A stretch of DNA of 53,431 bases from positions 1-53,431 of the forward strand of contig CAMDDF010000001.1 in NCBI GenBank assembly GCA_945890885.1, read 5' to 3'. The translations under genes and the position numbers were made by a program. Each line of letters opens with the position of its first letter. The stretch's first letter is position 1. Below are positions 20,849 through 47,923 of this stretch, piece after piece. The notes beneath the pieces are model-generated. The model saw only the letters and a list, made by a program, of their open reading frames with translations, did not search any database and was not told the DNA's origin. Source of the stretch: Candidatus Kuenenia stuttgartensis (GTDB lineage: Bacteria; Planctomycetota; Phycisphaerae; Sedimentisphaerales; CAMDDF01).

Positions 20849-20945
20849 GATGACTTAACCTTTGTCTATGCGGGACTAATGATGATAGTTCAGCAGGGTA
20901 CGAAAACCTGCAAAATATGGGGAAATGCGCCCGGCAGGACTCGAA
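20849..20945. repeat. attL: imperfect direct repeat with a 20-nt exact core (displaced tRNA-Arg 3' end)
   Basis: 20926-20945 TGCGCCCGGCAGGACTCGAA is identical to 47850-47869. 20849-20925 resembles 47772-47849 (1 indel, ~12 mismatches). Confidence 0.8.
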
Positions 20946-21481: not shown

Positions 21482-21590
21482 TGTAGGGAAATTTCAAGCC
21501 CTACCTTATGCAGGGTGCTGTTTTATACCGGTCGAGAGCCGTTCGTCGATTCTAAGGGCTCAAAGTGGTCATTTAACCGGGGTTTGAGAG
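21482..21590. repeat. island intergenic repeat family 1, copy A
   Basis: Shares the exact block CGTTCGTCGATT (21540-21551 = 39175-39186) and ~65-70% identity over ~60 nt with copy C. Ends 15 nt from the orf160 stop. Confidence 0.6.
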
Positions 21591-22200: not shown

Positions 22201-24600
22201 TTATGCCACAGCCTGTTGCTGATAAAGATATTTCTGGAATCCTGAGAACACCTTGCCAATCTCATCCGGTTTGCCCAGATCGGCTACGGCATCGGCAATG
22301 GAGTTGTGATACTTGAGCTGCAACAATGGCGTTAGTTTGTCTTGGTCAAGCTCCTCTACACCTACACTGACATAGTGTGACAGAACAAAATCGAGAAAGA
22401 CCTGCTGTTTGCTGTTAAAATGCGTGCTTATATCGACCTTGGCTTTAGCGGCACGTTCTTCACGGGTCAGCGGCATAAGGGCGTAGGCCACATGTGCCAG
22501 CACGTCGAAGATGTCGCTCTTTTCTGCATCGACGATCCTTTGCATTTCTGTAAGCTGGTCTTTGCCGAACCCTTTATCGGCCAGTCCATCCAGCAGCTTC
22601 TTTCGCGTTTCCGGTATGCTCCACAAGGTTCGAAGCTCCTCTTCATTCCTAAAGAACTCCGGCAGCTTACCGAAAAGCAGTTCCATAAACTGTTGTGCCG
22701 ACATCGGTGTCCCATCTGGATGCCAGAAGCTCGTTACCATCATGTGCTGGATAGTCCGTTCCTTGCCGTCAGCAAGTTTAACCTTCGCTCGCGTCCTCTT
22801 CTTGCACACGCAATTCAGCTTTCCGCAAACCGGACACGGCTCTTTCGGACATTCACACGGGCTCTTCCCGCAAATGGGACATGGTTGCGGAGGTGTTTTT
22901 TCACATTCGCATGGTTGGCAACCGCACTTAGAACACGTCTTTGACTCTTCCGGTTCTATTGGCTCTCCATCCCACTCAGGATCGCTGAAATGATGGTGCG
23001 CCTGCACAAAGTCATATATTGTAAAGTAATCCTTGCCATCATATAGTCGCGTGCCACGGCCAATGATTTGTTTGAACTCAATCATCGAATTGATAGGACG
23101 CATCAGCACAATGTTGCGAATATTGCGGGCATCCACACCGGTTGAGAGTTTCTGCGATGTAGTGAGGATAGTTGGGATAGTTTTCTCGTTGTCCTGGAAG
23201 TCGCGTAGGTGCTGCTCCCCCAGCGCTCCGTCGTTGGCTGTAACTCGCTGGCAGTAGTTTGGGTCTTTGATGGTCTTCATCTGATTGATGAGGTCACGCA
23301 CGGCCAGCGCATGGTCTTGCGTAGCACAAAAAACCAGCGTCTTCTCGTTCTGGTTGATTTGCTCCATGAAAATCTTCACACGGTGTGCTTCACGTTCCTT
23401 AATTTCGATAATCTTATTGAAGTCGGTTTCCGTGTATAATTTCCCGGTTTCAATCTCACCTTCAATCAGTTTGTCATCTGGTGTATAAACGTAGTCATCG
23501 AGCGTAGTGGAAATCTGCTTAATCTTAAACGGAGTGAGAAAGCCGTCATTGATGCCTTCCTTGAGCGAGTAGATATACACCGGCTCGCCGAAGTAGGCGT
23601 ATGTGTCCACGTTGTCCCTTCTTTTAGGAGTAGCGGTCATACCGAGTTGCACGGCAGGGGCAAAGTAGTCAAGGATACCACGCCAGTTGCTTTCGTTATT
23701 TGCTCCGCCGCGATGGCACTCATCAATAACAATGAAATCGAAAAATTCTGGCGGGTACTCGCCGAAATAAGGTGATGGGTTACCATCCTTTGGCGGGCCG
23801 CTCATAAATGTCTGGAAGATTGTGAAGAACAGACTGCCATTTTTTGGCACCTTGCCCTTTTTGCGAATGTCATCTGGCTCAATTCTTACCATCGCATCCT
23901 CGGGAAAAGCCGAGAAAGCGTTATATGCTTGGTTGGCCAGAATATTTCGGTCTGCAAGAAACAGGATACGTGGTCTGCGTGATGGTTCGCCGCTCAGGTT
24001 CCAGCGGCTATGAAACAACTTCCACGCAACTTGAAAGGCTATAAAAGTCTTGCCTGTGCCGGTGGCCAGCGTAAGAAGGATGCGTTGTTGTTCTACAGCA
24101 ATGGCCTCCATTACCCGTTCGACGGCGATGTCCTGATAGTATCTGCTTGGATGCGATCCACCCTTGTCCTCAAATGGCACGGTGGCGAAACGATCACGCC
24201 ATGCGTTAGCTTCGGCAAAGGTAATCGCCCAGAGTTCATCTGGTGTGGGATAACATTGCATTTCATTTTCTTTGCCCGTCTGCATATCGACGCCGTAGAT
24301 GCTCTGACCATTGGTGGCATAGGCAAATCGCACAGCTATCTTCGTTGCATAGTCCTTGGCCTGTCCCACGCCTTCAGTAAGTGGCTTGTCCCACGCCTTG
24401 GCTTCGACGACGGCCATTTTGGTGTTGCGATAGACCAGCACATAATCGGCAATAAGCGGTTTACCTCTTCGACCGAGTCCTTCGATGCGGCCCAGTGTGA
24501 TAGGATATTCACGCAAGATTCTGCTGCCATCAATTACTCCCCACCCCGCGGCTTTCAGTGCAGGGTCGATATATTCTGCTCTTGTTTCAGCTTCGTTCAT
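22201..24600 (-). CDS. hsdR: type I restriction enzyme R subunit (EcoEI-like C-terminal domain)
   Basis: MNEAETRAEYIDPALKAAGWG N-terminal nuclease domain, helicase motif I ATGTGKT, motif II DECHRGG, motif VI QIIGRGTR, and a C-terminal EcoEI_R_C-like region (DQLTEMQRIVDAEKSDIFDVLAHVAY). Confidence 0.95.
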   Translation of the reverse strand: MNEAETRAEYIDPALKAAGWGVIDGSRILREYPITLGRIEGLGRRGKPLIADYVLVYRNTKMAVVEAKAWDKPLTEGVGQAKDYATKIAVRFAYATNGQSIYGVDMQTGKENEMQCYPTPDELWAITFAEANAWRDRFATVPFEDKGGSHPSRYYQDIAVERVMEAIAVEQQRILLTLATGTGKTFIAFQVAWKLFHSRWNLSGEPSRRPRILFLADRNILANQAYNAFSAFPEDAMVRIEPDDIRKKGKVPKNGSLFFTIFQTFMSGPPKDGNPSPYFGEYPPEFFDFIVIDECHRGGANNESNWRGILDYFAPAVQLGMTATPKRRDNVDTYAYFGEPVYIYSLKEGINDGFLTPFKIKQISTTLDDYVYTPDDKLIEGEIETGKLYTETDFNKIIEIKEREAHRVKIFMEQINQNEKTLVFCATQDHALAVRDLINQMKTIKDPNYCQRVTANDGALGEQHLRDFQDNEKTIPTILTTSQKLSTGVDARNIRNIVLMRPINSMIEFKQIIGRGTRLYDGKDYFTIYDFVQAHHHFSDPEWDGEPIEPEESKTCSKCGCQPCECEKTPPQPCPICGKSPCECPKEPCPVCGKLNCVCKKRTRAKVKLADGKERTIQHMMVTSFWHPDGTPMSAQQFMELLFGKLPEFFRNEEELRTLWSIPETRKKLLDGLADKGFGKDQLTEMQRIVDAEKSDIFDVLAHVAYALMPLTREERAAKAKVDISTHFNSKQQVFLDFVLSHYVSVGVEELDQDKLTPLLQLKYHNSIADAVADLGKPDEIGKVFSGFQKYLYQQQAVA

Positions 24601-24608
24601 ATTTTTCC

Positions 24609-27011
24609 TTAGTCCTTGGTTAGAAACTTGATTGTCTCGGCAGCATCGGGAAATTGTTCAATAAGCTCCGGCTTATCCATAAAATGATAAGAGATAAACC
24701 GTGCTCCATCTCGCTCCAAACGATTAAAGAAATAGCAAGCATTCTTAGCTGATGGAGGTGAGGATCCGACTTGAATAAGAGGAATAAGTTTGAGTGCACG
24801 ATCTGAACCTTTCTTTGCCAGGTATAGTCTCTCGACATCAAGGCAAATCGACATTGTCCTTGATTCTTTCAGGAACTCACTGTTACTGCTCATCAAAATA
24901 GAAATCTCATTATCATAAACACCATTGCGATGGCGGCTATGAAGAGAATGAATCAATTGAGTCTCAGCCCATGTATCAGCAACTGCCTCACGAAACTTTT
25001 GCACTTCACCAAGGAGTTGTTCATTACGCATTTTTGCGTCTTCTTGTCCGACCACACCACCGTGACCGCCCCAGTCATTTCGCATTTTATTTGTTGTTGA
25101 AATGATCGTTGCCAGGTCCTTGCGGCTGAGAGCTTGGGGCAACGAAAGAGAGGGGTCAGCAAAAATATCTGCGCAAAGCGACCTGTCATTCTTCGCGTTA
25201 TCAGTTTTCTTTCCATCCTCAGAAAGCAACTTTCTTGTCTGCTTAACTAAATAATCTACCACCACCCTCCATGTCCCAAACGTTGCCCGTTGAAAACTCA
25301 GGTTTTGTGACTGCATTATTTCTTTAAGTTTATGTTTGTGCGATTCAAAAAAAGCGTCGTTAGAACTGAAAGCACTCAATAGAATGATGCCAATAAACTG
25401 CGTCGTTCCTTCAAAAAAATGTAAGAGGTGTTCATATTTTGTCTTAAAGTCCTGACTTGGTGCAGCCTGCCATGCACGAAGAATTGATGCGAGGGGAAAT
25501 GGAAGGCTTTCAATCCATTGTTCGAGACTTTCTATGGTGTGTAGTTTAATTCCGCCTGCCAGCCTTCCTGCCAGATAGCCGATCTGTTGGTCCACATTTG
25601 ACGCAGTTTTTGGGCTGGCCCAAAGCTCACGACTAAGTTCTGTAAGTTCATTTTGAAGAGCCTTTACCGTATTTTGCTCAGCAGTAATTTTCCCCTCAAT
25701 AGCCACCATTTCTCGCTGTGTTGACAGGTCAGGCACAAATATATTCATACCTCTTAATCTTAGCTTATTGAGCTTTGGAATCAAACCTGTCTTACTTTGG
25801 TCCATCTGCTGCTTTCCAAACTCAGAGTTGAGGAATCGAGTGACAAAGCGAGCGTTTGAACGGGCTGGATCAATTACAGCTTGAGCGTAATTTTGTGGCT
25901 TTAATTTAAAATCTTCACATGATTCTACAACATCACTATTACCTATAAGCGGAATAAAAATTGCATTTTCAAATGGCTCAAAAGCAAAACTGTCACCTTG
26001 CTGTCCTAAATTTATCGCTGTTGCAAGTTCTTCAAATTTTACTGATAATGCACCAAAACGCTTTTCTGCAAGTGCAAAGGCCTCCGCTACCCTAATTTCT
26101 GAGACACCTTTAAATGTCTCGGTAGAAACTAATTGGCCAAGTTCCAATGAGACGCCCTTACATTTTTTGCGTAAATTTCCTATAATCTGGTGGTTTTTGT
26201 TTGAGTCTGCGGATAACTGTGCCACAAACATTTGTGTTGATGGATTTCGTCGAACGATTATCAAGTAAGATGGAATGTTCGTATATGGCGCAAATGTCCC
26301 TGATGGAAGTGCCAAAGCTGCCTCAATCCCGAGGCCAATTTCGCTGAACTTATGAAAAACAGAACGAGGCGAAAAGAAAGAAGGTGTAACGACGAACAAG
26401 CCAACACCCAACGAACTCAAATGCCGCGAGGCAGCAACCAAAATAATGTTTCCTAAATCGTCACCCAATTCTATTTCTCCTCCCAGCGGGAGAGGATATA
26501 TTAAGGGGTAATCTGACTTTGCATTCATCGGCAGAATGCTTGCAATTACATCTAGTTCCATGTTTGCCACGTCAAGTGATTGCAGGGGAGCACCACATTG
26601 CCAATCCGCATCAGGTACTAGCATTTTTCCAAGAGCTGCTTCACCTTGGTTTGGCGTGAGAGCAATCGCTTTGTTCGCCTTGAAAGACTTGCACAAAATC
26701 CCAAGAAGGAATCCAGATCCAGCCCAAGGGTCACAGATTGTTTTTGGTGCAACGCCCTCAATAACTAATGAAAACACTTCAGTAAGCCATTGTGGAATAT
26801 GACAAAACATTCCCCCAGAACGACCTAATCTTGTTGCCATAAGAAGACCTAAAGCAGTCAAATCTGTGGCAGAAAACTGTACATTTTTATCTTTAAGAAG
26901 ATTAGCGAGCTCCTCAGGTCCTCTAAAATCAAAACCTCTGATTTTATCTATTACATTCCAAGCTTTCTCATTTATTAAGGGGCTTTCGTTTTTTTTCATG
27001 GTTAATCTCAC
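24609..27011 (-). CDS. 800-aa R-M-embedded protein: degenerate N6-MTase fold + HsdS-like TRD/coiled coil + C-terminal Rx5H (HEPN-like) domain
   Basis: 4-nt overlap with the hsdS stop and an 8-nt gap to the hsdR start. AdoMet motif I ICDPWAGSGFLLG (aa 92-104) and ALALPSGTFAPYTNIPSYLIIVRR are present, but the NPP[FY] position reads SILPMNAK. aa ~340-465 IFIPLIG...IFVPDLSTQREMVAIEGKITAEQNTVKALQNELTEL resembles half of an HsdS. aa 644-650 read RNDWGGH. Confidence 0.8.
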   Translation of the reverse strand: MRLTMKKNESPLINEKAWNVIDKIRGFDFRGPEELANLLKDKNVQFSATDLTALGLLMATRLGRSGGMFCHIPQWLTEVFSLVIEGVAPKTICDPWAGSGFLLGILCKSFKANKAIALTPNQGEAALGKMLVPDADWQCGAPLQSLDVANMELDVIASILPMNAKSDYPLIYPLPLGGEIELGDDLGNIILVAASRHLSSLGVGLFVVTPSFFSPRSVFHKFSEIGLGIEAALALPSGTFAPYTNIPSYLIIVRRNPSTQMFVAQLSADSNKNHQIIGNLRKKCKGVSLELGQLVSTETFKGVSEIRVAEAFALAEKRFGALSVKFEELATAINLGQQGDSFAFEPFENAIFIPLIGNSDVVESCEDFKLKPQNYAQAVIDPARSNARFVTRFLNSEFGKQQMDQSKTGLIPKLNKLRLRGMNIFVPDLSTQREMVAIEGKITAEQNTVKALQNELTELSRELWASPKTASNVDQQIGYLAGRLAGGIKLHTIESLEQWIESLPFPLASILRAWQAAPSQDFKTKYEHLLHFFEGTTQFIGIILLSAFSSNDAFFESHKHKLKEIMQSQNLSFQRATFGTWRVVVDYLVKQTRKLLSEDGKKTDNAKNDRSLCADIFADPSLSLPQALSRKDLATIISTTNKMRNDWGGHGGVVGQEDAKMRNEQLLGEVQKFREAVADTWAETQLIHSLHSRHRNGVYDNEISILMSSNSEFLKESRTMSICLDVERLYLAKKGSDRALKLIPLIQVGSSPPSAKNACYFFNRLERDGARFISYHFMDKPELIEQFPDAAETIKFLTKD

Positions 27012-28192
27012 AATTCTCCATTAAAGGCTTGGTGCAATAATGATTTCTTCAATGCATCTAACGCAGCGAGCTTCTTTTGGTAGATGGATTCGAGGCTTTG
27101 GGTTTCGGCGGCGAGTTCTTTAATTGTATCAACGGTCGTTTGCTGGTCAGCCAGAGATGGCAAAGCAATCGGGTACGGTTCGAGTGTTTCTTTGGTCAGC
27201 CCAATCTGGCCTGCAGCACGTTCTGAATGATAAATTATGTATTGCAGTATTGTGGAGTGCTTTAGAAAATAGAATAGAAAGTCCTTGGAGAGTTTTGATT
27301 CGTCTGGCACAGCCTTCATTAAAGCGACGTTGTATGCACCTTCCAATCCGCGTAGAATCTGAAAAAGTGGAGGTCCGTATCGTCCGATCATCACGTCATC
27401 AATATTGCAAAATCTCTTGGCCAGAGAACGAGGAATATAGACCAAATGTTTGTCGCTCTTGTAATCCCGAATTTGGATCAAGCGGATATTGTTGGGCGAG
27501 TGTGTCTTAGTGAAGACGGACTTGGGTGGTTGAGACCCGCCAACGAAGTTGCACACGTCACCGAGTGTTGTCTCTACCCATCCATCGCCGCGTTTAGTAA
27601 AGACGGAGTTGAGGTGGCTTTCGAAGATGGCACGGGCGTTTTGCAAATTCTTTTCGGCGTTGGCTTTGACGGTGGCGATACCCTCAAACGCTTCATCGAG
27701 AATCCCGACAATCCGCTGCTGCTCGGAAAGTGATTTCGGATAACTAATCTGAACTATCGAAATATCCTGCTGGTTGACGCTTGCCTGGTTAACTGACTGC
27801 TTGCACACACCACGCCAATAACCGCTCTGGAAGAGATACTTCATCGCGTGATTCAAATAGGCCGATGTCACCACGTCTTTGGGACGCATGAGCAACAGAT
27901 TCACACCATGGTAAACCGGTTCGTCGCTATTAAATGCAGCAGTTTTTCCAACGTGAACTGCGCTATTGATGTGACTGAAGAGTATGTCGCCATCTTGCAG
28001 GCGATACCGCTCCTTATCGCGCTCGCTCAATTCGGCATAGCCAACTCTTCCAAAATCGAAACTTGCATCCGAAATACTCTCAATGCGAGAAATCTTGTCA
28101 CCCTTGCCGCTCTTGTTTTGTTTGCAGTTAACGCCATTCCGAAGAACGGCCAAAACTTCACCCAATGTGCTTTTATGCCATCCATTCTTCAT
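27008..28192 (-). CDS. hsdS: type I R-M specificity subunit
   Basis: Two TRDs, each opening W..(S/T)LGEV/LGDV. Central conserved helix LSEQQRIVGILDEAFEGI and C-terminal LPSLADQQTTVDTIKEL...LKKSLLHQAF. Confidence 0.9.
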   Translation of the reverse strand: MKNGWHKSTLGEVLAVLRNGVNCKQNKSGKGDKISRIESISDASFDFGRVGYAELSERDKERYRLQDGDILFSHINSAVHVGKTAAFNSDEPVYHGVNLLLMRPKDVVTSAYLNHAMKYLFQSGYWRGVCKQSVNQASVNQQDISIVQISYPKSLSEQQRIVGILDEAFEGIATVKANAEKNLQNARAIFESHLNSVFTKRGDGWVETTLGDVCNFVGGSQPPKSVFTKTHSPNNIRLIQIRDYKSDKHLVYIPRSLAKRFCNIDDVMIGRYGPPLFQILRGLEGAYNVALMKAVPDESKLSKDFLFYFLKHSTILQYIIYHSERAAGQIGLTKETLEPYPIALPSLADQQTTVDTIKELAAETQSLESIYQKKLAALDALKKSLLHQAFNGEL

Positions 28193-29643
28193 AGCAGCGC
28201 CCGTATGTTCACCAACACTTCTGCACTTTCAGCATCCAGTTCGGCAATCTCGTCAATAATATCCAGCGGGCTAAGGTGGGTAATTTCCTCGCCACCATTC
28301 GGATTTTTACTCGATAGCTCGAAGGTTGTCTGATTAATGGTTTTGGCATCTACGCTCCAGCTCTTTGGTGAATCAGCGAAGGTTTTTTGCAACTCAATAA
28401 ATTCAGCAAGGTCGGCATCATTGAGCGAGTTGGTCTTGCCCATGTTACGGCCGGGATCAAGCTGGTAGTACCATGTTTTACGAGTTTTACTGCCTTTCTC
28501 AAAGAACAGTACCACGGTTTTCACACCTGCCCCCTGAAAGGTACCGCCGGGGCAGTCGAGCACGGTGTGCAGGTTGCAGCTTTCTAGAAGAAGTTTTCTT
28601 AAACTCACAGAGGCATTGTCAGTGTTGGAAAGGAAAGTGTTTTTGATAACCACGCCGCCGCGGCCGCCAGCCTTTAGCATCTTGATAAAGTGCTGGAGAA
28701 ACAAGAACGCCGTCTCGCCAGTACGGATGGGGAAATTTTGTTGTACTTCCTTGCGTTCCTTGCCGCCAAATGGTGGATTAGCAAGAATCACGTCGTAGCG
28801 GTCCTTTTCCTGAACGTCAGCAAGGTTCTCGGTGAGCGTGTTAGTATGCAGTATGTTCGGTGCTTCTATGCCATGCAATATCATATTCATAATCGCAATG
28901 ACGTAGGCAAGCGACTTCTTCTCCTTGCCGTAGAAGGTGCTGGTCTGGAGTGTGGTGAGGTCTTTGGTGGTGAGCTTCTTGCCCTTGGCCGTCAGATACT
29001 CGAACGCCTCGCACAAAAAGCCTGCCGAGCCAACTGCTCCATCGTAGATTTTTTCGCCTATGCGTGGCTGAACCACCTTTACGATTGCGCGGATAAGCGG
29101 GCGCGGGGTGTAATACTCGCCGCCATTGCGCCCGGCGTTGCCCATGTTCTTAATCTTGGCTTCATAGAGGTGCGAAAGCTCATGCTTTTCAGTCTGGGAG
29201 CCAAAGCGGAGTTCGTCAATGTGGTCAATAATCTCTCGCAGATTGTAGCCGCTCTGAATTCGGTTTTTGATTTCCCCGAATATCTCCCCGATTTTGTATT
29301 CGATGGTGTTTGGCCCGCTTGCTTTCTGTTTAAAGCTGTGCAGGTAGGGGAAGAGCTTCTGATTGACGAAGTCGCGGAGGTCGTCGCCGGTCAGGGCGTT
29401 AAGATCGGGCTTACCGTCCTTGCCCTTTGGCGCGGCCCATGTTTCCCAGCGGTATGGTTTATCGAGGATTTGTGTGTATTTCTTTCCCTCCATCTGAGCC
29501 ACCATAACCTTGTCGTGCTCTAGTGCATCGAGGTATTTCAGGAAGAGCATCCAGGATGTCTGCTCCGTGTAGTCCAGTTCGCTGGTGCAACCGGCATCTT
29601 TCCAGAGAACGTCGTCAATATTTTTGAAAGCTTGTTCGAACAT
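28189..29643 (-). CDS. hsdM: type I R-M DNA methyltransferase subunit
   Basis: Start moved to the ATG at 29643 (MFEQAFKNIDDVLW...), downstream of a predicted promoter. HsdM_N region, motif I YDGAVGSAGFL and catalytic ILANPPFGG. Confidence 0.95.
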   Translation of the reverse strand: MFEQAFKNIDDVLWKDAGCTSELDYTEQTSWMLFLKYLDALEHDKVMVAQMEGKKYTQILDKPYRWETWAAPKGKDGKPDLNALTGDDLRDFVNQKLFPYLHSFKQKASGPNTIEYKIGEIFGEIKNRIQSGYNLREIIDHIDELRFGSQTEKHELSHLYEAKIKNMGNAGRNGGEYYTPRPLIRAIVKVVQPRIGEKIYDGAVGSAGFLCEAFEYLTAKGKKLTTKDLTTLQTSTFYGKEKKSLAYVIAIMNMILHGIEAPNILHTNTLTENLADVQEKDRYDVILANPPFGGKERKEVQQNFPIRTGETAFLFLQHFIKMLKAGGRGGVVIKNTFLSNTDNASVSLRKLLLESCNLHTVLDCPGGTFQGAGVKTVVLFFEKGSKTRKTWYYQLDPGRNMGKTNSLNDADLAEFIELQKTFADSPKSWSVDAKTINQTTFELSSKNPNGGEEITHLSPLDIIDEIAELDAESAEVLVNIRALL

Positions 29644-29716
29644 GGGTACCTTATCCCTTAATATATTTTCTCTGTTATTTCCAGATAATATGCGAATCTC
29701 TATAGATATTTCGGAC

Positions 29717-29745
29717 ATTCTAACCAATCAAAGAGTCAAAAGCAA
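29717..29745 (-). promoter_or_regulatory. putative sigma70-type promoter of the hsdM operon
   Basis: Minus strand reads TTGCTT - 17 nt - TAGAAT, about 70 nt upstream of the 29643 ATG and downstream of the track's longer start. Confidence 0.45.
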
Positions 29746-37327: not shown

Positions 37328-37370
37328 TCAAACCTTTTGTAAACCATTAAAAATGAAAGGAGCGCGAAAA

Positions 37371-37646
37371 ATGAAACAAGAATCTCATAAGATTGACGAT
37401 GTGATAGAATTCTGTCAGCGGCATTCTCTAAACAGCGTCATGATTGGCAAATGGATCTGGGTAAAATTTACCCGCAAGCCCGCTGAAAACATGCGAACAC
37501 TACTAAAGGAGTTTGGATTCTGCTGGAGTAAACGCAGAGGTATGTGGGCACACAATTGCGGACATCCAAGTCAGCCAGGCAAGCAGGCACCGTGGCGTAA
37601 GTACCAATGCAGTGATGTATCAGGTTCGGTGGAACTGGACGATTAA
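37371..37646 (+). CDS. small mobile-element protein, paralogue 1
   Basis: Start moved to 37371 (AGGAG 9 nt upstream; aligns with its paralogue). MKQESHKIDDVIEFCQRHSL..IGKWIWVKFTRKP....LLKEFGFCWSKRRGMWAHNCGHPS. Confidence 0.7.
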   Translation: MKQESHKIDDVIEFCQRHSLNSVMIGKWIWVKFTRKPAENMRTLLKEFGFCWSKRRGMWAHNCGHPSQPGKQAPWRKYQCSDVSGSVELDD

Positions 37647-37833: not shown

Positions 37834-38115
37834 ATGAAACAGGAGAAATTAAATAGCATTGAAGAGGTGCTGCAGTTTTGCAGGGATAACAACCTTCCGG
37901 CAAGAGTGGTGGGTAAATGGGTATGGCTGAAGTTTCCGCTTAGGCCATATGCGTCTGTACGGGAGGAACTAGAGCAGGCCGGCTTTAGATGGTCAAATCG
38001 CCGCAAGCAATTCCATCACAACTGCGGATACCCGTCAGAACCTGCCAGAGATTACGAACCATGGGACCGCTATGGAACCAGGACACTTGAAGAGGCAATT
38101 CCAACTAACCGTTAA
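37834..38115 (+). CDS. small mobile-element protein, paralogue 2
   Basis: MKQEKLNSIEEVLQFCRDNNL..VGKWVWLKFPLRP....ELEQAGFRWSNRRKQFHHNCGYPS is colinear with the 37371 gene. Confidence 0.7.
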   Translation: MKQEKLNSIEEVLQFCRDNNLPARVVGKWVWLKFPLRPYASVREELEQAGFRWSNRRKQFHHNCGYPSEPARDYEPWDRYGTRTLEEAIPTNR

Positions 38116-39052: not shown

Positions 39053-39232
39053 TGGGACCCCATAGCCTCAAATTTTTCCCCCTGCACCCTAAATTTAAAG
39101 CCTATGCCCAACCGGTTTTAATCCGAAATTAAAGGGGTTTAGTCTATTAGGGTACTTTGGCTAGGGTCAGGCAACGTTCGTCGATTTTAGCGGCTTAAAC
39201 TATCCATTTTACTGGGGTTTTTCTCAATTATT
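39053..39232. repeat. island intergenic repeat family 1, copy C
   Basis: See copies A and B. Ends 19 nt from the stop of the NERD-helicase gene. Confidence 0.6.
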
Positions 39233-39250
39233 GTTACTTATATATACCTA

Positions 39251-41194
39251 TTAGTCATATTGAATCCATTCTATATCTGATGGAAACTTGTTATGTAGTT
39301 CCACTAAGGTTTTTCCCACAAATGAAGAACGATCGGATATATGAATTACAAGCGTGTCAATCGCTCTGGTCAGGGGAATCATTAACCACTTTTTAGCGTA
39401 ATCTAACGCAGCTTCCTCCTCATTAAAATACATATCCTCCTCTCTCTGCTCTTTAGTAATTTCAGGATTAGACCTCTTATACTCGAAGAACTCATCTAAA
39501 CCAAAATTCACGACAACCCACCCTTCTAATCCACGGCAGGACTCATACTGTACAATACGAAATTGATCTAAGCTTGTTGGAAAATCATCTCTCATTTTTG
39601 GGTCGACACCATCCCAAACTTGCAAGTTCCAATCTCTATATCGTTGAGCTATAGTAGATTCACGCCGACCATTTGCAGTTACAACCCAGCTGGGCGGTAC
39701 ACAGAGCAACATGTCCACTGGCCTGTTTCCATCATCTTTGGAGGTTGCGATAATACGTTTATGAAACTTTTCAGAAAAGGCATTTCCTTCAATCACAATT
39801 ACTTTTCCACCGTGCGATTCATGAACTGGTTCTAAGTTCCAATTATCAAATTCTATTTGTTCTGCAAAGTGGCCTACAGTTTCACATAACATCGATTTCA
39901 GCCTCAGGCTTTTAGTTAATGGTACTATTTGCGTTTCATTTTTATCAATATTTTTTCGCCAGTCAATTCGAGATACTCCACGAACGAATTGATCTACGCC
40001 GTCAGCAATTATTATTTTTTTATGCCCGTATGTCTTGTAGAGGAAATCTCTTTCTGTCTCCGGCCAATCTTGAGATTCATCAATTAGAATCAAATCCCAA
40101 GATAAAAGCCTACTATATGTCGCTTTAGCCGTTTTGAAGTCATTGTCAGAAAGCGCTCCCTCATTTAAAAACTTTAAAGCCTGTTCTTTGTATTCCTCAT
40201 ATTTTGAAAGAAAATCTTCCTGTCCATGCGTTATTATTTCCAGTGCAATTAGCCACTCATACATGAAGCTATGTATAGTTTTTACCGCAATACTTTTATC
40301 ACCAACAGCATCCTTTACCCCAAGCAGAGTAAGTAACCTTCTCATATCTGCTACCAACGCCTTATTATATGTGAGAATTAGCACGCGAAAACCTTGTTCA
40401 TTGTATGTTTGATGTGCAATTTGGATTAGACGTACCGTTTTACCTGTTCCGCCGCGACCTTTATATATGAGTAGTTGCTTTCCTATTTTTGATGCATACT
40501 GTTGCTGGTTTCGGTCTAAAATGGTCTTTGTAATGACTTCTAATCGTTTTCTACCAATTTTTGAGGTTTCAAGTCGTTTAGAGAAGATACTACAAATTTC
40601 ATCAAACCATACACGGGCGGAAAATGTTTTTACAACTTCATTTTCGTCACTTCCTTTTAACATCGCTATTGCATCTATAAACCTTTGCCATGTCAAATCA
40701 GAACCTAATATGTTTGTATCTAATTTTGGTAAGTCTGTATTGGGTACCTTTCTAAGCCATATCAGATTGTTAATCCATGGAGGTTTTCCATTTTTAGAGT
40801 TACGTTTAATATATTTTCTAACAGATTGCTTTTGCCCCTCACTTTGGCTGGTTACATTGTGCTTTTCACCATTATATTCTACTAAAATATTTGGTCCCTC
40901 GAATGTAACTTTTTCTGGCGGATGACCCTTGACTTCTATAGCGAGGCAGAATGAATGAATTAGTTTATTGTTGGACGCCTTAAACATTTTTTCTCTTGGT
41001 CGATAGTCGGCATAAAAAACTAACAAATCAATATCTTGGGGATTTTGGCCGAAACATTGCACAGAAGAAAATATCTCTAAGATAATATCTTTTGATTCTT
41101 CGAGTCCAGGATATGCTCGAGATGCGAGCCGTCCTAATTGTTCCGCCGCCTCCGCTTCATTACTGTTATCACCAAGAGTGTGAAGTTTCAGCAT
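39251..41194 (-). CDS. NERD-type PD-(D/E)xK nuclease domain fused to UvrD/DUF2075-like SF1 helicase (Nhi-like)
   Basis: N-terminus: E..(AEAAEQLG), DIDLLVF (aa 55-61), AIEVKG (aa 85-90), then QSEGQKQSVRKYI, which is the NERD layout. Helicase: Walker A GRGGTGKT (aa 246-253), LILIDESQDW, IIADGVDQ, SCRGLEGWVVV and PLTRAIDTLVI. Confidence 0.85.
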   Translation of the reverse strand: MLKLHTLGDNSNEAEAAEQLGRLASRAYPGLEESKDIILEIFSSVQCFGQNPQDIDLLVFYADYRPREKMFKASNNKLIHSFCLAIEVKGHPPEKVTFEGPNILVEYNGEKHNVTSQSEGQKQSVRKYIKRNSKNGKPPWINNLIWLRKVPNTDLPKLDTNILGSDLTWQRFIDAIAMLKGSDENEVVKTFSARVWFDEICSIFSKRLETSKIGRKRLEVITKTILDRNQQQYASKIGKQLLIYKGRGGTGKTVRLIQIAHQTYNEQGFRVLILTYNKALVADMRRLLTLLGVKDAVGDKSIAVKTIHSFMYEWLIALEIITHGQEDFLSKYEEYKEQALKFLNEGALSDNDFKTAKATYSRLLSWDLILIDESQDWPETERDFLYKTYGHKKIIIADGVDQFVRGVSRIDWRKNIDKNETQIVPLTKSLRLKSMLCETVGHFAEQIEFDNWNLEPVHESHGGKVIVIEGNAFSEKFHKRIIATSKDDGNRPVDMLLCVPPSWVVTANGRRESTIAQRYRDWNLQVWDGVDPKMRDDFPTSLDQFRIVQYESCRGLEGWVVVNFGLDEFFEYKRSNPEITKEQREEDMYFNEEEAALDYAKKWLMIPLTRAIDTLVIHISDRSSFVGKTLVELHNKFPSDIEWIQYD

Positions 41195-41246
41195 GTATCA
41201 CTCACTTTCATTTCGTCGTAAGATATGTTCTTGATAAATTAAATGA

Positions 41247-42269
41247 TTATATTGATTCAATTTTTACAACCAGTTTCTTTAAGTATTCACCATTTTTACG
41301 CATATCTTCCTGTAAACCAGCTTTTCGTGAAATACCTCTCAGGAAAACTCTTGTGCCGATGCTTGACCCTAAAGCAACAAATGGTGCCAGCGGTGGTATC
41401 AGGCCCATACAGATACCTTCGGCAATATATCCTACAGAGACAGAAGTAACTGTCATTCCGGTTGATTTAATGGTGTCTTTGATAGCAGCTTCAATAGATT
41501 TCTTTTTAAAAGCAAACATAAACGCATTTATTGCACCGTGTAATGCCCCAGAAGACAATGTTACGCCAAGAGCGTTACTAAAAAAGCCTTCCCATGCCGT
41601 TTCATTTATTTCATCTCTGATAATATGGCCAGCTTCCTCGGCTGTCATTGGAACTTCGTGCAGTTGTATTCCGTATTCTGTGTCAACGCCTTGGCTTTTT
41701 AATTCTTCATAAATATTGCTGCTAACAGCATAATCAATATGCTCCACATACTGACCATCATATAATATCTCGTGATTGGCCATCTTTTCCGCATTTTTTT
41801 GAATGGCATCAATAACACTTTCAGAACTCTGATACATTTTAACCTGAATAAACTTTCCATCGTCTGTTATCAGGTCAAAACCCTCCTGGGAGCCGCTTTC
41901 AGCTAATCTAATGCCAGCCCCGAACGATTGTTGGAACTTTAACTCACCTAATGCTCCTTTGAGCTTATTAACCATTCCTTCTGTGGAAGCACCACCTTTT
42001 TCAATCATCGCACGAAAATAGTTTATCGCTTCATACTGTGTATCTACCTTGTCTCCCATCAAAGCAGTTAAAGCCTCTCTGACTTCATTTGAGACCGGAG
42101 CATCATTTAGCCTGCCCTCGCTCAACAAATCAGCCAGTGTGAGTCCAGCCGTAATCTCAACACCTAACAAGTCATCAGCCCGCTGCCTTTTAACGGACTG
42201 CTTGAGCAAATCAGCCATTTTGCCGACAACTCCGTTATTGTATTTGCTTTTAAATTCCTCGATAGTCAT
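41247..42269 (-). CDS. PD-(D/E)xK (Mrr/NERD-like) core protein with two C-terminal Gly/Ala-rich hydrophobic helices
   Basis: GALGELKF (E109)...EGFDLITDDGKFIQVK (D132, Q142-x-K144). Hydrophobic segments at aa ~226-254 and ~271-306 (GMTVTSVSVGYIAEGICMGLIPPLAPFVALGSSIG). Confidence 0.7.
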   Translation of the reverse strand: MTIEEFKSKYNNGVVGKMADLLKQSVKRQRADDLLGVEITAGLTLADLLSEGRLNDAPVSNEVREALTALMGDKVDTQYEAINYFRAMIEKGGASTEGMVNKLKGALGELKFQQSFGAGIRLAESGSQEGFDLITDDGKFIQVKMYQSSESVIDAIQKNAEKMANHEILYDGQYVEHIDYAVSSNIYEELKSQGVDTEYGIQLHEVPMTAEEAGHIIRDEINETAWEGFFSNALGVTLSSGALHGAINAFMFAFKKKSIEAAIKDTIKSTGMTVTSVSVGYIAEGICMGLIPPLAPFVALGSSIGTRVFLRGISRKAGLQEDMRKNGEYLKKLVVKIESI

Positions 42270-42273
42270 TGAA

Positions 42274-42621
42274 TTAATCCGCCTTATTTAACCTCTGCTC
42301 CAAGACTTCGATTCTTTGCAATGCTTCTTCAAGTTTGGTTGCCAGCAAATCGTTGTAGCACTTCTGTAAATCTATAATTTTGGTTAATTCCTCCAAAGCC
42401 TTCTCGCCAGTGAAGGTTTTCTTGCTGTTATTAACTTTATTTCCCACTTTTATGGCTTGTTCCGTAATGCCTTTTTTATCACAAAACTGCTTAGTCCTAT
42501 CCATAGCAGTTTTTGTTGTAGGATGATTCATAATAGTTCCGGTTGCCGATTTAACCTGTTCAGTAACGTTTTTTAATTGTTCTTGACCCTTACTGAAAAT
42601 GCTTTGGAATTTATTGTTCAT
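42274..42621 (-). CDS. 115-aa predicted coiled-coil protein
   Basis: ATG at 42621 (the track uses TTG at 42627). K/E/Q/L-rich heptad-like sequence. The stop is 4 nt before the ATG of the 340-aa gene, suggesting translational coupling. Confidence 0.6.
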   Translation of the reverse strand: MNNKFQSIFSKGQEQLKNVTEQVKSATGTIMNHPTTKTAMDRTKQFCDKKGITEQAIKVGNKVNNSKKTFTGEKALEELTKIIDLQKCYNDLLATKLEEALQRIEVLEQRLNKAD

Positions 42622-42669
42622 ATCCAAATCCTATAAAAACCCGTATTGGCAATCGCAAATTTTAGTCTG

Positions 42670-43545
42670 TCAGAGTTTTACTCTTCTCAACACAAGACCA
42701 CCTAAGCCCAATAACAGAAGCGTTGTCGGTTCGGGGATTGAGGCAACACGGAACCCGACAGCACGGTGCTCGAAGTCTGGGGTGACGACGTCGTCCCGGT
42801 AGGACAACGCGAGGCCGTAGTTGTCGTAGTAGTACGACCCACCGCGAAGACCGCGACCGGAATCGGACAAATAGTTTCCACTGTTCCACGGACTTTCCGT
42901 CCATTCCATTACATTGCCCATCATGTTATACGTATTGTTGAGTTCTTTGACACCGCTGGTGGCATTCCATGGTTCATTCCCAACAGAAGAACTGTAGTTC
43001 CATTTCGTAGGGTTCGGCAAACCTTCAATAAGGTCACCAGTTGATGCGTTAGACCATGTCTGGATGTTTGTGCCGTTCCAGTAGGCCGCCTTGACCCATT
43101 CATCTTCGGTCGGCAGGAAGTAAATCGCGTTGCTATTGCGGTAGGGATTGGAAGCATCGTAGCCAGTATCAGTCACATCCCACACACTAAAAGTACTGCT
43201 GCTAAACTTATACGCCGCCGGGTTCCCAGTGCTGGTGTTTAAATAGTTGACAAACTGAGCCGCCTCAAACCAGCTTACGCTATTGCTTGGAACGTCAGCT
43301 CCTGTCCAGTAGATATTGCTATTGGAAGCAAACTTGGCAAACTGGGCATTGCTGACCTCGTAGGTACCCATGCGGTAGTCACTGTTGACGATTCCGTAAC
43401 CACTGGTTGGGTTTGTACTGCCTGAAATCGGCACAAAGTCGATGGTGAATTGATTCTCCCCGCTACCAAAGATGTCAGCCAAAGCAATATTTGCTACTAC
43501 CAAAACACATAAAAACATTACCACAAAAATTGATTTAGTTCCCAC
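42670..43545 (-). CDS. secreted FGE-sulfatase (SUMF1-like) domain protein with PEP-CTERM anchor
   Basis: Signal peptide, W/Y/N-rich FGE-type domain ending RGGSYYYDN...AVGFRVASI, then PEPTTLLLLGLGGLVLRR (PEP-CTERM). Confidence 0.85.
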   Translation of the reverse strand: MGTKSIFVVMFLCVLVVANIALADIFGSGENQFTIDFVPISGSTNPTSGYGIVNSDYRMGTYEVSNAQFAKFASNSNIYWTGADVPSNSVSWFEAAQFVNYLNTSTGNPAAYKFSSSTFSVWDVTDTGYDASNPYRNSNAIYFLPTEDEWVKAAYWNGTNIQTWSNASTGDLIEGLPNPTKWNYSSSVGNEPWNATSGVKELNNTYNMMGNVMEWTESPWNSGNYLSDSGRGLRGGSYYYDNYGLALSYRDDVVTPDFEHRAVGFRVASIPEPTTLLLLGLGGLVLRRVKL

Positions 43546-46514: not shown

Positions 46515-47888
46515 ATGGCAAGTGTTATCAAACAAAAGACCGCTAAAGGCATAAGGCATTTTATTCAGCTTAGTTCTGGTGAAAACGAGGCAAGGCCGAA
46601 AATAGCCTTAGGCAAGGTTAACAAAAGGCAGGCCGATACTGCCAAGGTAAACATTGAAAATATTGTAAAGTGCAAAGATACCGGGGCGGTTGCATCTCCA
46701 GCAGTGCAGGAATGGCTTGACGACATATCTGATGGACTCCGCAAGCGGTTGGAAACGCTGAACATAATCGAGCCGAGAAACGGCGGCCAAAGCCATACGG
46801 CTGTAGAATGGACAAAGCTGTATATTGACAGCCGCCCCGATGTAAAGGAAATTACACGTGTGAAATTGCAAAACACCGCTAATAAGTTATCAGCATTTTT
46901 CAAGGGACAGGATATAAGCAGTATAACCATTCAGCAGGCTAAGGATTTTCGGGTATATCTGCAAAATGTTGTGGGGCTTGCTGAAAACTCTATCAGGCGG
47001 CAGATTGGCATTTCAAGGCAGTTTTTCAATGCCGCTATGAATACAGGGCTTATCAGCAAAAATCCGTTTATGGGTCAGCCTGTAACGGTGAGGGCTAATT
47101 CATCGCGGTTTTATTACATAACTCAGGAAATGGCATTAAAAGTCCTTGATGCCTGCCCTGATGTGCAATGGCGGTTAATCTTTGGCTTGGCAAGGTGGGG
47201 AGGTTTACGCTGTCCCAGCGAAGTCCTAAGGCTAACTTGGCAGGATGTGGACTTTGAGCATAACCGCTTTACTGTTCACGCCAGCAAAACGGAACACTAT
47301 GCCGATGGCGGTATTAGGGCAGTCCCGATGTTTCCAGAGTTAAGGCCGTTGTTTCAAGATGCTTTTGATAAAGCAAAAGAGGGGGATGTTTATTGCATAA
47401 CCCGCTACCGTGATGGCTCTACAAATTTGCGGACTCAAATGTACAAGATTATTGCCAGAGCCGGACTTGAGCCTTGGCCTAAGCTATTCCAGAACCTTAG
47501 AAGTACCAGAGAAACCGAGCTATTCAAAATGACAAATGGCAATGTCAAGGCGGTATGCTCTTGGATTGGAAATAGTCCATCGGTTGCTATGGCACACTAT
47601 GCACAGGTAACCGAAGCTGACTTGCAGGAAGCGGCTAAAATGACGCTGTTGAATGATGCCGAAAAAATAATGCAAATTGCCCAAACAAAAGCCGAACAAA
47701 AAAGGGTGCAGAATACGGTGCAGAGTACTGCAGAATCGGCTTGCATAGAGTTGCGTGAAAGCAATTTAAATGATGACTTAAACCTTTGTCTATGCGGGAC
47801 TAATGATAATAACTCAGCAGGGTGCGAAAACCTGCAAAAACCCCAAAAGTGCGCCCGGCAGGACTCGAACCTGCGGCCTACAGTTTAG
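46515..47888 (+). CDS. int: tyrosine recombinase / phage-type integrase
   Basis: SAM-like core-binding region, catalytic ARWGGLRCPSEVLRLTW (R), FQNLRSTRETEL (H/K-x-x-R) and WIGNSPSVAMAHY (H...Y). The last 39 nt overlap the tRNA-Arg gene. Confidence 0.95.
   Translation: MASVIKQKTAKGIRHFIQLSSGENEARPKIALGKVNKRQADTAKVNIENIVKCKDTGAVASPAVQEWLDDISDGLRKRLETLNIIEPRNGGQSHTAVEWTKLYIDSRPDVKEITRVKLQNTANKLSAFFKGQDISSITIQQAKDFRVYLQNVVGLAENSIRRQIGISRQFFNAAMNTGLISKNPFMGQPVTVRANSSRFYYITQEMALKVLDACPDVQWRLIFGLARWGGLRCPSEVLRLTWQDVDFEHNRFTVHASKTEHYADGGIRAVPMFPELRPLFQDAFDKAKEGDVYCITRYRDGSTNLRTQMYKIIARAGLEPWPKLFQNLRSTRETELFKMTNGNVKAVCSWIGNSPSVAMAHYAQVTEADLQEAAKMTLLNDAEKIMQIAQTKAEQKRVQNTVQSTAESACIELRESNLNDDLNLCLCGTNDNNSAGCENLQKPQKCARQDSNLRPTV
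47772..47869. repeat. attR: direct repeat partner (integrase 3' end + tRNA 3' end)
   Basis: See attL. The exact core is 47850-47869. Confidence 0.8.
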
Positions 47889-47923
47889 GAAACTGTCGCT
47901 CTATCCACCTGAGCTACGGGCGC
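47850..47923 (-). tRNA. tRNA-Arg (anticodon CCU)
   Basis: Folded by hand, 74 nt: acceptor GCGCCCG/CGGGCGC + A; D arm GCUC-AGGUGGAUA-GAGC; anticodon arm ACAGU-UUCCUAA-ACUGU; variable AGGCC; T arm GCAGG-UUCGAGU-CCUGC. No encoded CCA. Confidence 0.95.

Follow-up and report, generated by a model that had tools for sequence, protein, structure and literature searches.

A conserved gene pair with a predicted restriction-endonuclease-like core and a member of a Druantia-linked nuclease–helicase family lie side by side, probably as separate modules, on a tRNA-Arg island

Nhi (nuclease-helicase immunity) is a staphylococcal defence encoded by a single gene, and DruE, the large helicase of Druantia systems, is a YprA-family protein of ∼1800–2000 amino acids (aa). 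Defence systems recombine their modules. In DruE of Druantia types I and II the only nuclease domains are reported to be inactivated Vsr domains (Bell et al., PMC12458937), and a study of Druantia III notes that no nuclease module is apparent (10.64898/2026.05.12.722862). A GIY-YIG nuclease bound to the membrane, SNIPE, cleaves phage DNA while it is being injected (10.1101/2025.11.03.685801). Here we describe three adjacent genes, orf115, orf340 and orf647, in a 53,431-nt stretch of Candidatus Kuenenia stuttgartensis (assembly GCA_945890885.1, contig CAMDDF010000001.1, positions 1 to 53,431), referred to below as the window. A first-pass annotation, made from the sequence alone, had proposed that the three genes form a single defence module. 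Our analysis instead points to two modules: a pair, orf115–orf340, and a nuclease–helicase fusion, orf647, whose homologues are mostly embedded in Druantia operons.

Open reading frame (ORF) analysis recovered the three co-oriented genes at the positions first given for them (Table 1), separated by intergenic gaps of 4 nt (orf115/orf340) and 52 nt (orf340/orf647), and the calls of an independent gene caller for the source contig comprise the same genes of 115, 340 and 647 aa. All three have conserved homologues and are therefore real genes. We searched the three proteins with tblastn against all 113 loci that had been fetched. The helicase was found in 96 of these and orf340 in 18, and the two co-occurred only in the contig of the window. 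None of the other 95 helicase loci carried orf340 or orf115, and the helicase was missing from every other orf340 locus. The three-gene neighbourhood is thus not conserved among orf647 homologues. Their recurrent partners are Druantia genes, and otherwise they occur alone, which leaves the idea of a three-gene system unsupported. Genes that lie side by side in a defence island cannot be taken for one system on that ground. On these comparative grounds we consider it highly likely that orf115–orf340 and orf647 are two independent cargo modules placed next to each other on a tRNA-Arg island. The expectation that the cluster resembles no named system did hold, as it found no match in PADLOC, Pfam, NCBIfam or PHROGs; in these searches orf647 gave only weak matches centred on its P-loop.

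In all 12 distinct loci with an orf340 homologue, an orf115 homologue lies directly upstream, and the junction between the two is always either a 4-nt gap or an overlap of 4–14 nt. Clustering of the genes surrounding orf340 homologues identified orf115 as the sole shared gene (11 of 11 loci, to which locus L109 adds one; loci are referred to by L numbers). Judged from these loci, orf115 and orf340 are a strict and, by their spacing, translationally coupled pair. The orf115 product is small and helical, with a heptad pattern at its C-terminus, as expected of the all-helical coiled-coil candidate that the first reading had seen in it. Its C-terminal helix shows an invariant pattern, G-x13-Q-x3-ND-x-LA-x2-L-x2-AL-x-RI-x2-LE, with Tyr or Phe before ND (alignment A5), and the hydrophobic residues of this helix are heptad-spaced. 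For orf115, Pfam, NCBIfam, PADLOC and PHROGs gave no match.

A co-oriented gene at 42670–43545 (minus strand) ends 43 nt upstream of orf115. Its product has an FGE-sulfatase domain, a signal-like N-terminus and a PEP-CTERM anchor. It was present in no other orf115/orf340 locus and therefore lies outside the module.

The orf340 family is larger than the first searches suggested. A word-indexed search gave only 10 relatives of orf340, with one new homologue added there by a profile from alignment A4, and a metagenome scan with alignment A2 gave only 8 loci. A full HMMER scan recovered 191 orf340-family clusters (50% identity), with E ≤ 1e-30 for 86, and almost every one of these proteins is 340–370 aa long. 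The family was not matched by any Pfam, NCBIfam, PADLOC or PHROG family (weak Pfam matches were DUF6998 at 0.0045 and, in 2 of 55 members, NOV_C at 3.6e-4), sequence searches of the PDB with the single sequence or the profile returned no relative, and searches of viral contigs and of plasmids were likewise negative.

Alignment A4 comprises 55 diverse homologues from the HMMER scan. Four residues, G105, E109, F112 and D132, do not vary among them, and conservation reaches at least 90% at Q142, V143 and K144. AlphaFold2 gave an unusable model of orf340 from a 10-sequence input (pLDDT 53), whereas the 55-sequence alignment gave a model with a pLDDT of 89.4 and a pTM of 0.72. In this model residues 1–116 form a helical bundle, and three long helices (210–253, 259–290 and 292–339) make up the C-terminal part. 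The core between them has the order alpha-beta-beta-beta-alpha-beta: helix 93–116, which contains E109, is followed by a strand, a strand at 133–135 directly after D132, and a strand at 140–144 bearing Q142-x-K144, and then by helix, strand, helix and strand. The conserved acidic and lysine residues of a PD-(D/E)xK enzyme are thus carried on the core that is typical of these proteins. The top Foldseek neighbours of the model are Mrr-domain proteins, the ERCC4 domains of FANCM/FAAP24 and ERCC1, MUS81, YaeQ, Can2, MspJI and BglII, none of them significant (E 0.05–0.5; best E 0.29 in the PDB and 0.05 in BFVD). The canonical core order, the motif residues at their expected positions and the restriction-endonuclease fold of the top neighbours together make this fold well supported at the level of the model. 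The PD-(D/E)xK-like core that had been read from the motif alone is accordingly upheld, by its signature in 55 homologues and by the predicted fold; the profile and structure searches advised at the time did bring up neighbours of the right fold, but no significant one. In a profile–profile comparison of alignment A4 with the orf647-family alignment (A3, see below), the nuclease-type domains of the two families showed no relationship. From the conservation of the motif residues we infer that orf340 is an active nuclease.

The C-terminal part of orf340 had been described as two long hydrophobic helices that anchor the protein in the membrane. Hydrophobic segments rich in Gly, Ala and Ser are indeed present, three in number, and are conserved across the family; the anchoring was not borne out, as insertion appears only marginal. 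The Kyte–Doolittle peak over 19 residues is 1.72 in orf340, and 41 of the 55 homologues reach at least 1.6. On the Hessa scale, summed independently of position, the best 19-mer scores +4.9 kcal/mol, with a family median of +3.4 and a value of +8.0 for a soluble helicase control. The loop between segments 1 and 2 is Lys-rich, and a topology with three spans would put it outside the cell. These positive sums and the placement of the loop make membrane insertion uncertain and count against a membrane-held nuclease. We regard the prospects of a membrane association of orf340 as evenly balanced. Its likeliest forms, both plausible from the sequence, would be an in-in hairpin, formed by residues 270–309 with the conserved Gly-Pro at its turn, or an insertion that can be switched.

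The main rival reading of the pair is that it acts on the membrane rather than on DNA, as an abortive-infection effector that disrupts the membrane. The nuclease fold would then be a sensor or degenerate, and the hairpin of residues 270–309 would insert upon activation and kill the infected cell, as a 40-residue hairpin of colicin-type pore-forming or holin-like kind, with orf115 keeping orf340 soluble. The hairpin is conserved in the family and has Lys/Arg-rich flanks, its marginal hydrophobicity suits switchable insertion better than a constitutive span, and a small overlapping upstream gene is an antitoxin-like layout. BFVD also contains holin matches to the C-terminal helices, but these are weak and not significant (E > 1). 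The invariance of E109 and D132 and the conservation of K144 in at least 90% of the 55 homologues argue for retained catalysis, and we consider this alternative unlikely compared with a catalytically active orf340.

The genomic surroundings of the pair bear on its role. At L008 the orf340 homologue (protein P0122) is 86% identical to orf340, and downstream of the pair comes an unrelated ORF of 180 aa and no helicase. The homologue at L109 (P0282) falls into one 90%-identity cluster with P0122. This locus (L109:1-12094) has the order HsdR ... HsdS ... HsdM with the pair as the last unit, again with no helicase, and the pair faces PARIS-like genes encoding AAA_15/AAA_21 (378 aa) and DUF4435 (243 aa) proteins. 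Neighbours elsewhere are DUF2779 and NucS-like nucleases and a T5orf172-ResIII/Eco57I-type enzyme (L005), and GmrSD_C and ParB_N genes (L101). Several small unannotated ORFs are embedded in the restriction–modification (R-M) operon of L109, which is of type I.

The most likely role of orf115–orf340, judged from its neighbours and predicted domains, is that of an anti-phage, abortive-infection or toxin–antitoxin-like module, and the probability that it is a defence or toxin–antitoxin-like module at all we would place near one half. Two points count against it: the assignment is guilt by association over about a dozen loci, and at one locus (L004) the neighbourhood of the pair consists of housekeeping genes. 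This last locus would also suit a non-defence role, in which the pair is an accessory of the mobile element for envelope or DNA processing, such as DNA uptake, entry exclusion or maintenance. So would its presence in an integrative element with an integrase, AlpA-type regulators and a DUF2958 gene, and the lack of any homologue found in the viral contigs and plasmids searched. However, at several independent loci the pair directly adjoins R-M genes, PARIS-like or GmrSD-like genes, or other nuclease genes, and a patchy distribution with varying neighbours is typical of defence cargo. A non-defence function therefore has, in our estimate, a rather small chance of being correct.

The second module, orf647, is supported as a PD-(D/E)xK-type nuclease fused to a superfamily 1 (SF1) helicase by its conserved motifs. 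Alignment A3 contains 37 sequences of its family, which are 39–66% identical to orf647. In the N-terminal domain every sequence has D56, E87 and K89, and at least 90% have D54. In the helicase region the invariant residues are G246 and G249–T253, including K252, of Walker A (GRGGTGKT), D372 and E373 of Walker B (DESQD), Q402 (DGVDQ), R405, R554 (CRGLEGW) and R610 (TRAID). Walker A, Walker B, the glutamine of motif III and the arginines of motifs V and VI are thus present family-wide. The nuclease signature and the full set of SF1 motifs reported in the first-pass annotation are thereby substantiated. Of the catalytic residues that it named, K252, E87 and K89 stand, and "D57" is misnumbered by one, as D54 and D56 are the aspartates that are conserved. 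Its label "NERD-type" has to be dropped: Pfam NERD (PF08378) matched neither orf647 at E ≤ 1 nor any of the 37 family members at E ≤ 0.01, and what the domain carries is a generic D...ExK signature.

Database matches to orf647 are confined to the helicase part. The matches to SF1 profiles are marginal: Pfam UvrD-helicase scored 25.1 bits (cut-off 23) and AAA_19 24.4 bits (cut-off 25.1), and the SF1-type Pfam matches span residues 221–395. UvrD-helicase, AAA_19 or the SLFN-g3 helicase matched 30–33 of the 37 family members; with AAA_30 included the range is 20–33 of 37. No UvrD_C-type Pfam match extends over the second RecA domain, and neither the single sequence nor the family profile found a sequence relative in the PDB. 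The PADLOC matches of orf647 (GajB 6.5e-08, C3a187 "NERD+UvrD" 2.3e-07, Nhi 8e-07, AbiO 4.2e-06) are partial, covering 92–176 residues of the helicase part at 24–28 bits.

Homologues of orf647 are widespread, with 367 database matches and 189 confirmed stretches in species-representative genomes from many phyla. We clustered the neighbouring genes of 86 orf647-homologue loci and found an adjacent protein of ∼1850 aa in 47 of them, which PADLOC identifies as DruE (E = 0). In the DruE-linked loci PADLOC also detects DruD (5e-127) and DruA (E = 0), with DruB/DruC, DruF and DruL alongside. When judgement was restricted to the 60 genome loci with enough flanking sequence, the orf647 homologue adjoined a DruE of type I or II/IV in 45 (75%) and was clearly solo in the remaining 15.

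Several architectures recur. Alphaproteobacterial type I-like loci have the order [954-aa unknown][DruD][DruE1][helicase], followed by a convergent DruA and an MzaB-like ATPase, such that the orf647 homologue lies between druE and druA. In a canonical type I locus from Pseudomonas (L014), DruB-DruC-DruD-DruE1 is followed by the helicase. Type IV/II-like loci read [helicase][DruF-like][DruL4][DruE4/2], and plasmid NZ_CP123587 carries DruF2-DruE2-helicase, where the start of the helicase gene overlaps the DruE2 gene by 4 nt. The Druantia-linked homologues include those of L014, L031, L038, L043 and L108 and of ∼40 further loci. In a neighbour-joining tree of the family the type I and type IV clades are coherent, and the clade of the window is mixed. 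Its DruE-linked members are L001 (P. aeruginosa), L012 and L014; among its solo members, L010 lies beside BREX and L011 beside HEPN/AbiU2, HNH and T5orf172 genes. A further solo relative, in Pseudohongiella, has ThsB-TIR, SLATT, TIR and HNH genes adjacent. No DruE-sized ORF is present in the window, and its copy of orf647 is therefore solo.

The type I-like loci showed a further peculiarity: a 954-aa protein (L038:406-3300, with equivalents in 24 loci) replaces DruB/DruC upstream of DruD. It has no PADLOC or Pfam match, and these alphaproteobacterial loci may be an unclassified Druantia subtype. At L014, in Pseudomonas sp. CR1201, a different, second helicase of Nhi/AbiO-like type (L014:14589-16442, minus strand) lies ∼2.6 kb downstream of the orf647 homologue; its PADLOC matches are PDC-S41 (2.6e-15), AbiO (2.5e-12) and Nhi (1.9e-11).

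None of the papers on Druantia and YprA that we consulted was found to describe an orf647-type helicase as part of Druantia, it is not among the named Druantia components of PADLOC (DruA-H, L, M), and literature searches by accession number for the Pseudomonas homologues returned nothing. The association of this family with Druantia appears to be undescribed in the literature consulted. Within the nuclease–helicase kind, orf647 is an unnamed member. Its intact nuclease motif, set against a DruE of types I and II whose nuclease is reported to be inactivated, makes the family a candidate effector of Druantia, a hypothesis drawn from sequence comparison.

The same linkage raises the alternative that the copy in the window is an orphaned Druantia accessory, which either has no autonomous function here or relies on a Druantia core elsewhere in the genome. 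The frequency with which the helicase adjoins DruE, its position inside the type I operon and the lack of a DruE-sized ORF in the window would all fit. On the other hand, orf647 is full-length with every invariant residue intact, 15 genome loci are clearly solo, and solo copies of the window clade lie within other defence islands. Solo copies in defence islands and an intact orf647 suggest selection for a stand-alone role. We give the orphan interpretation little credence. That orf647 is a defence gene we regard as probable.

Taken together, the data allow a working model for each module. The SF1 motor of orf647 would use ATP to translocate on, or unwind, foreign or replicating DNA, and the N-terminal PD-(D/E)xK-type nuclease coupled to it would cleave this DNA as in Nhi-type enzymes; orf647 could act autonomously, in an Nhi-like manner, or alongside Druantia. 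The orf340 product would be an active restriction-endonuclease-fold nuclease working through E109, D132 and Q142-x-K144, with a C-terminal Gly/Ala-rich helical hairpin that anchors to, or inserts into, the inner membrane. The orf115 product would bind it through the invariant C-terminal coiled-coil helix and gate it like an antitoxin or an adaptor. The full proposal, that orf115–orf340 is an unrecognised system of a membrane-held or switchable nuclease gated by orf115 and, in addition, that the orf647 family is the missing active nuclease of Druantia I, II and IV, is a tentative one, possible rather than probable. Besides the insignificant Foldseek scores and the marginal hydrophobicity of the tail, the working models of the two modules have to contend with a glutamine in place of the usual acidic residue of (D/E)xK (Q142-x-K144 in orf340) and with the failure of any nuclease family model to match the N-terminal domain of orf647.

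The division into two modules has its own counter-evidence. No terminator-like site was found between orf340 and orf647, and promoter-like sites occur at chance level. In the absence of such a terminator the three genes may be co-transcribed in the window, and a purely local functional link, which would lack comparative support, may exist. That the three genes nevertheless form one three-component system, in which the helicase–nuclease would be the sensor or the effector, its nuclease-fold partner would be tethered to the membrane and a coiled-coil protein would serve as adaptor, could draw on co-orientation, the short gaps, the missing terminator and the known recombination of defence modules, but with the adjacency confined to a single contig, no pair in the other 95 helicase loci, no helicase beside the ∼86%-identical orf340 relatives and well-supported Druantia partners for the helicase instead, we consider it very improbable. 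We retain the view of two neighbouring modules in what follows.

Table 1. Coordinates of the features discussed, in window positions.
Feature	Position	Strand	Description
orf647	39251–41194	-	647 aa; PD-(D/E)xK-type nuclease / SF1 helicase fusion, from ORF analysis
orf647 N-terminal domain, aa 1–200	40595–41194	-	D54/D56 ... E87-x-K89 nuclease signature
orf647 helicase region, aa 220–647	39251–40537	-	SF1 motifs, invariant columns
orf340	41247–42269	-	340 aa; N-terminal helical bundle, restriction-endonuclease-like core, three long C-terminal helices (predicted)
orf340 nuclease-fold core, aa 93–209	41643–41993	-	From conservation and AlphaFold2 topology
orf340 uncharged Gly/Ala/Ser-rich segments, aa 229–254, 270–290 and 291–309	41343–41585	-	Flanked by Lys/Arg-rich linkers; may form a membrane hairpin or a buried hydrophobic one
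orf115	42274–42621	-	Small helical partner of orf340; ATG at 42621, alternative upstream TTG at 42627
orf115 conserved C-terminal helix	42277–42414	-	Alignment A5, 8 loci
46-nt repeat	39175–39220		31 nt 3′ of the orf647 stop
89-bp direct repeat, right copy	47781–47869		Overlaps the 3′ end of tRNA-Arg(CCT)
89-bp direct repeat, left copy	20857–20945		Spacing to the right copy 26,924 bp

Both modules are part of a mobile island. The two 89-bp direct repeats are 93–96% identical and bound a 26.9-kb integrated island that carries a type I R-M operon together with the two modules. At its right end a tyrosine integrase gene (46515–47888) adjoins the tRNA-Arg(CCT) gene (47849–47923, minus strand), and the integrase ORF extends into the 89-bp repeat and into the tRNA gene on the opposite strand. 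Two AlpA/HTH_17 genes and a DUF2958 gene are nearby, and the G+C content of the island is heterogeneous (0.36–0.49). The type I R-M operon noticed earlier near the cluster is confirmed and lies within the same island; it spans 22201–29727, with hsdM at 28189–29727, hsdS at 27008–28192 and hsdR at 22201–24600. The observation that this operon and the cluster end in the same intergenic repeat is also correct. The repeat is 46 nt long, the copy 3′ of the R-M operon (21540–21585) is 78% identical to the one 3′ of orf647, and these are its only two copies. It has no stable predicted fold and was not found in any related locus. When PADLOC was run on the large ORFs of the window, the largest of which encodes a LamG-type protein of 1133 aa, only type I R-M components were reported.

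Two further observations concern the other cargo. Inside the R-M operon, between hsdS and hsdR, an ORF of 800 aa (24609–27011, minus strand) has no Pfam match at 1e-5 and no PDB relative, and its matches to the PADLOC model "Specificity_I" are weak and partial. This ORF is possibly an accessory or defence gene inserted in the operon. Two paralogous small ORFs at 37353–37646 and 37834–38115 (both plus strand; 97 and 93 aa) share the pattern GKW(I/V)W(V/L)KF ... GF.WS.RR ... H.CG.PS.P and adjoin DUF2958 and a zinc-ribbon ORF. These are probably genes of the mobile element.

If the pair is a defence module, its ∼190 clusters, which are unannotated in Pfam, NCBIfam, PADLOC and PHROGs, would join a small number of putatively membrane-acting nucleases. 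Mutational targets in the pair would be E109, D132, K144, the hairpin and the C-terminal helix of orf115. For the orf647 family, the question shifts from a three-gene system to whether it works autonomously like Nhi, as an effector of Druantia, or in both ways, and with its intact nuclease motif the family is a concrete lead for the nuclease of Druantia.

In comparison with known systems, orf647 most resembles Nhi, AbiO and the "NERD+UvrD" proteins in that an N-terminal nuclease-type domain and an SF1/UvrD-like helicase are joined in one polypeptide of ∼600 aa, and its solo homologues are found in defence islands. It differs from them in that the family is mostly embedded in Druantia operons and that its N-terminal domain matches no Nhi, AbiO or C3a187 model. 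Against the Nhi family model (PADLOC PDLC02372) orf647 scored 26 bits, with residues 353–444 aligned to model positions 251–342 of 470, which falls short of full-length membership. The resemblance to Druantia lies in the DruE neighbours of most judged homologues; the window itself contains no Druantia gene, DruE included. ZwsA, a NERD RNase, and CnuH of CoCoNuT were also considered as identities and rejected because the architecture differs.

Hachiman (HamA and HamB) and Gabija (GajA and GajB) likewise combine a nuclease with a helicase. GajB gave the best PADLOC E-value of orf647, but the match covers 128 residues round the P-loop only, and no HamB model is among the matches of orf647. As partners for such systems, orf340 and orf115 have no PADLOC match at E ≤ 1 and no DUF1837 or Toprim domain in Pfam. 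In the comparative data, moreover, the nuclease-fold gene and the helicase gene are uncoupled, unlike in these two systems.

The predicted core of orf340 is similar to Mrr, type IV restriction-endonuclease-like and ERCC4 domains, with a glutamate in helix 1, an aspartate where beta2 begins and QxK in beta3. The family differs in that no significant match or sequence profile links it to these proteins, and that its N-terminal helical bundle and C-terminal hydrophobic helices have no counterpart there. SNIPE is the sole characterised precedent that we found for a nuclease at or in the membrane. It would share with orf340 the concept of a cytoplasmic nuclease domain at the inner membrane, where sequestration could avert self-cleavage while injected DNA is targeted. 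SNIPE, however, is encoded by one gene, whose product combines an N-terminal transmembrane helix with DUF4041 and a GIY-YIG nuclease (10.1101/2025.11.03.685801), whereas orf340 has a PD-(D/E)xK-type core, marginal C-terminal hydrophobic helices and an obligatory small partner, and neither orf340 nor its family matched DUF4041, GIY-YIG or T5orf172. If the parallel is true, orf115–orf340 would be mechanistically similar to SNIPE but built from unrelated parts. In a type II toxin–antitoxin system a small upstream gene is translationally coupled to a larger toxic one, whose product is neutralised by direct binding; of this the pair displays the coupling, and toxicity of orf340 and its binding by orf115 would be predictions. 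On present sequence comparisons, orf115–orf340 is best described as a conserved, unannotated variant of the tethered-nuclease or toxin–antitoxin-like defence theme.

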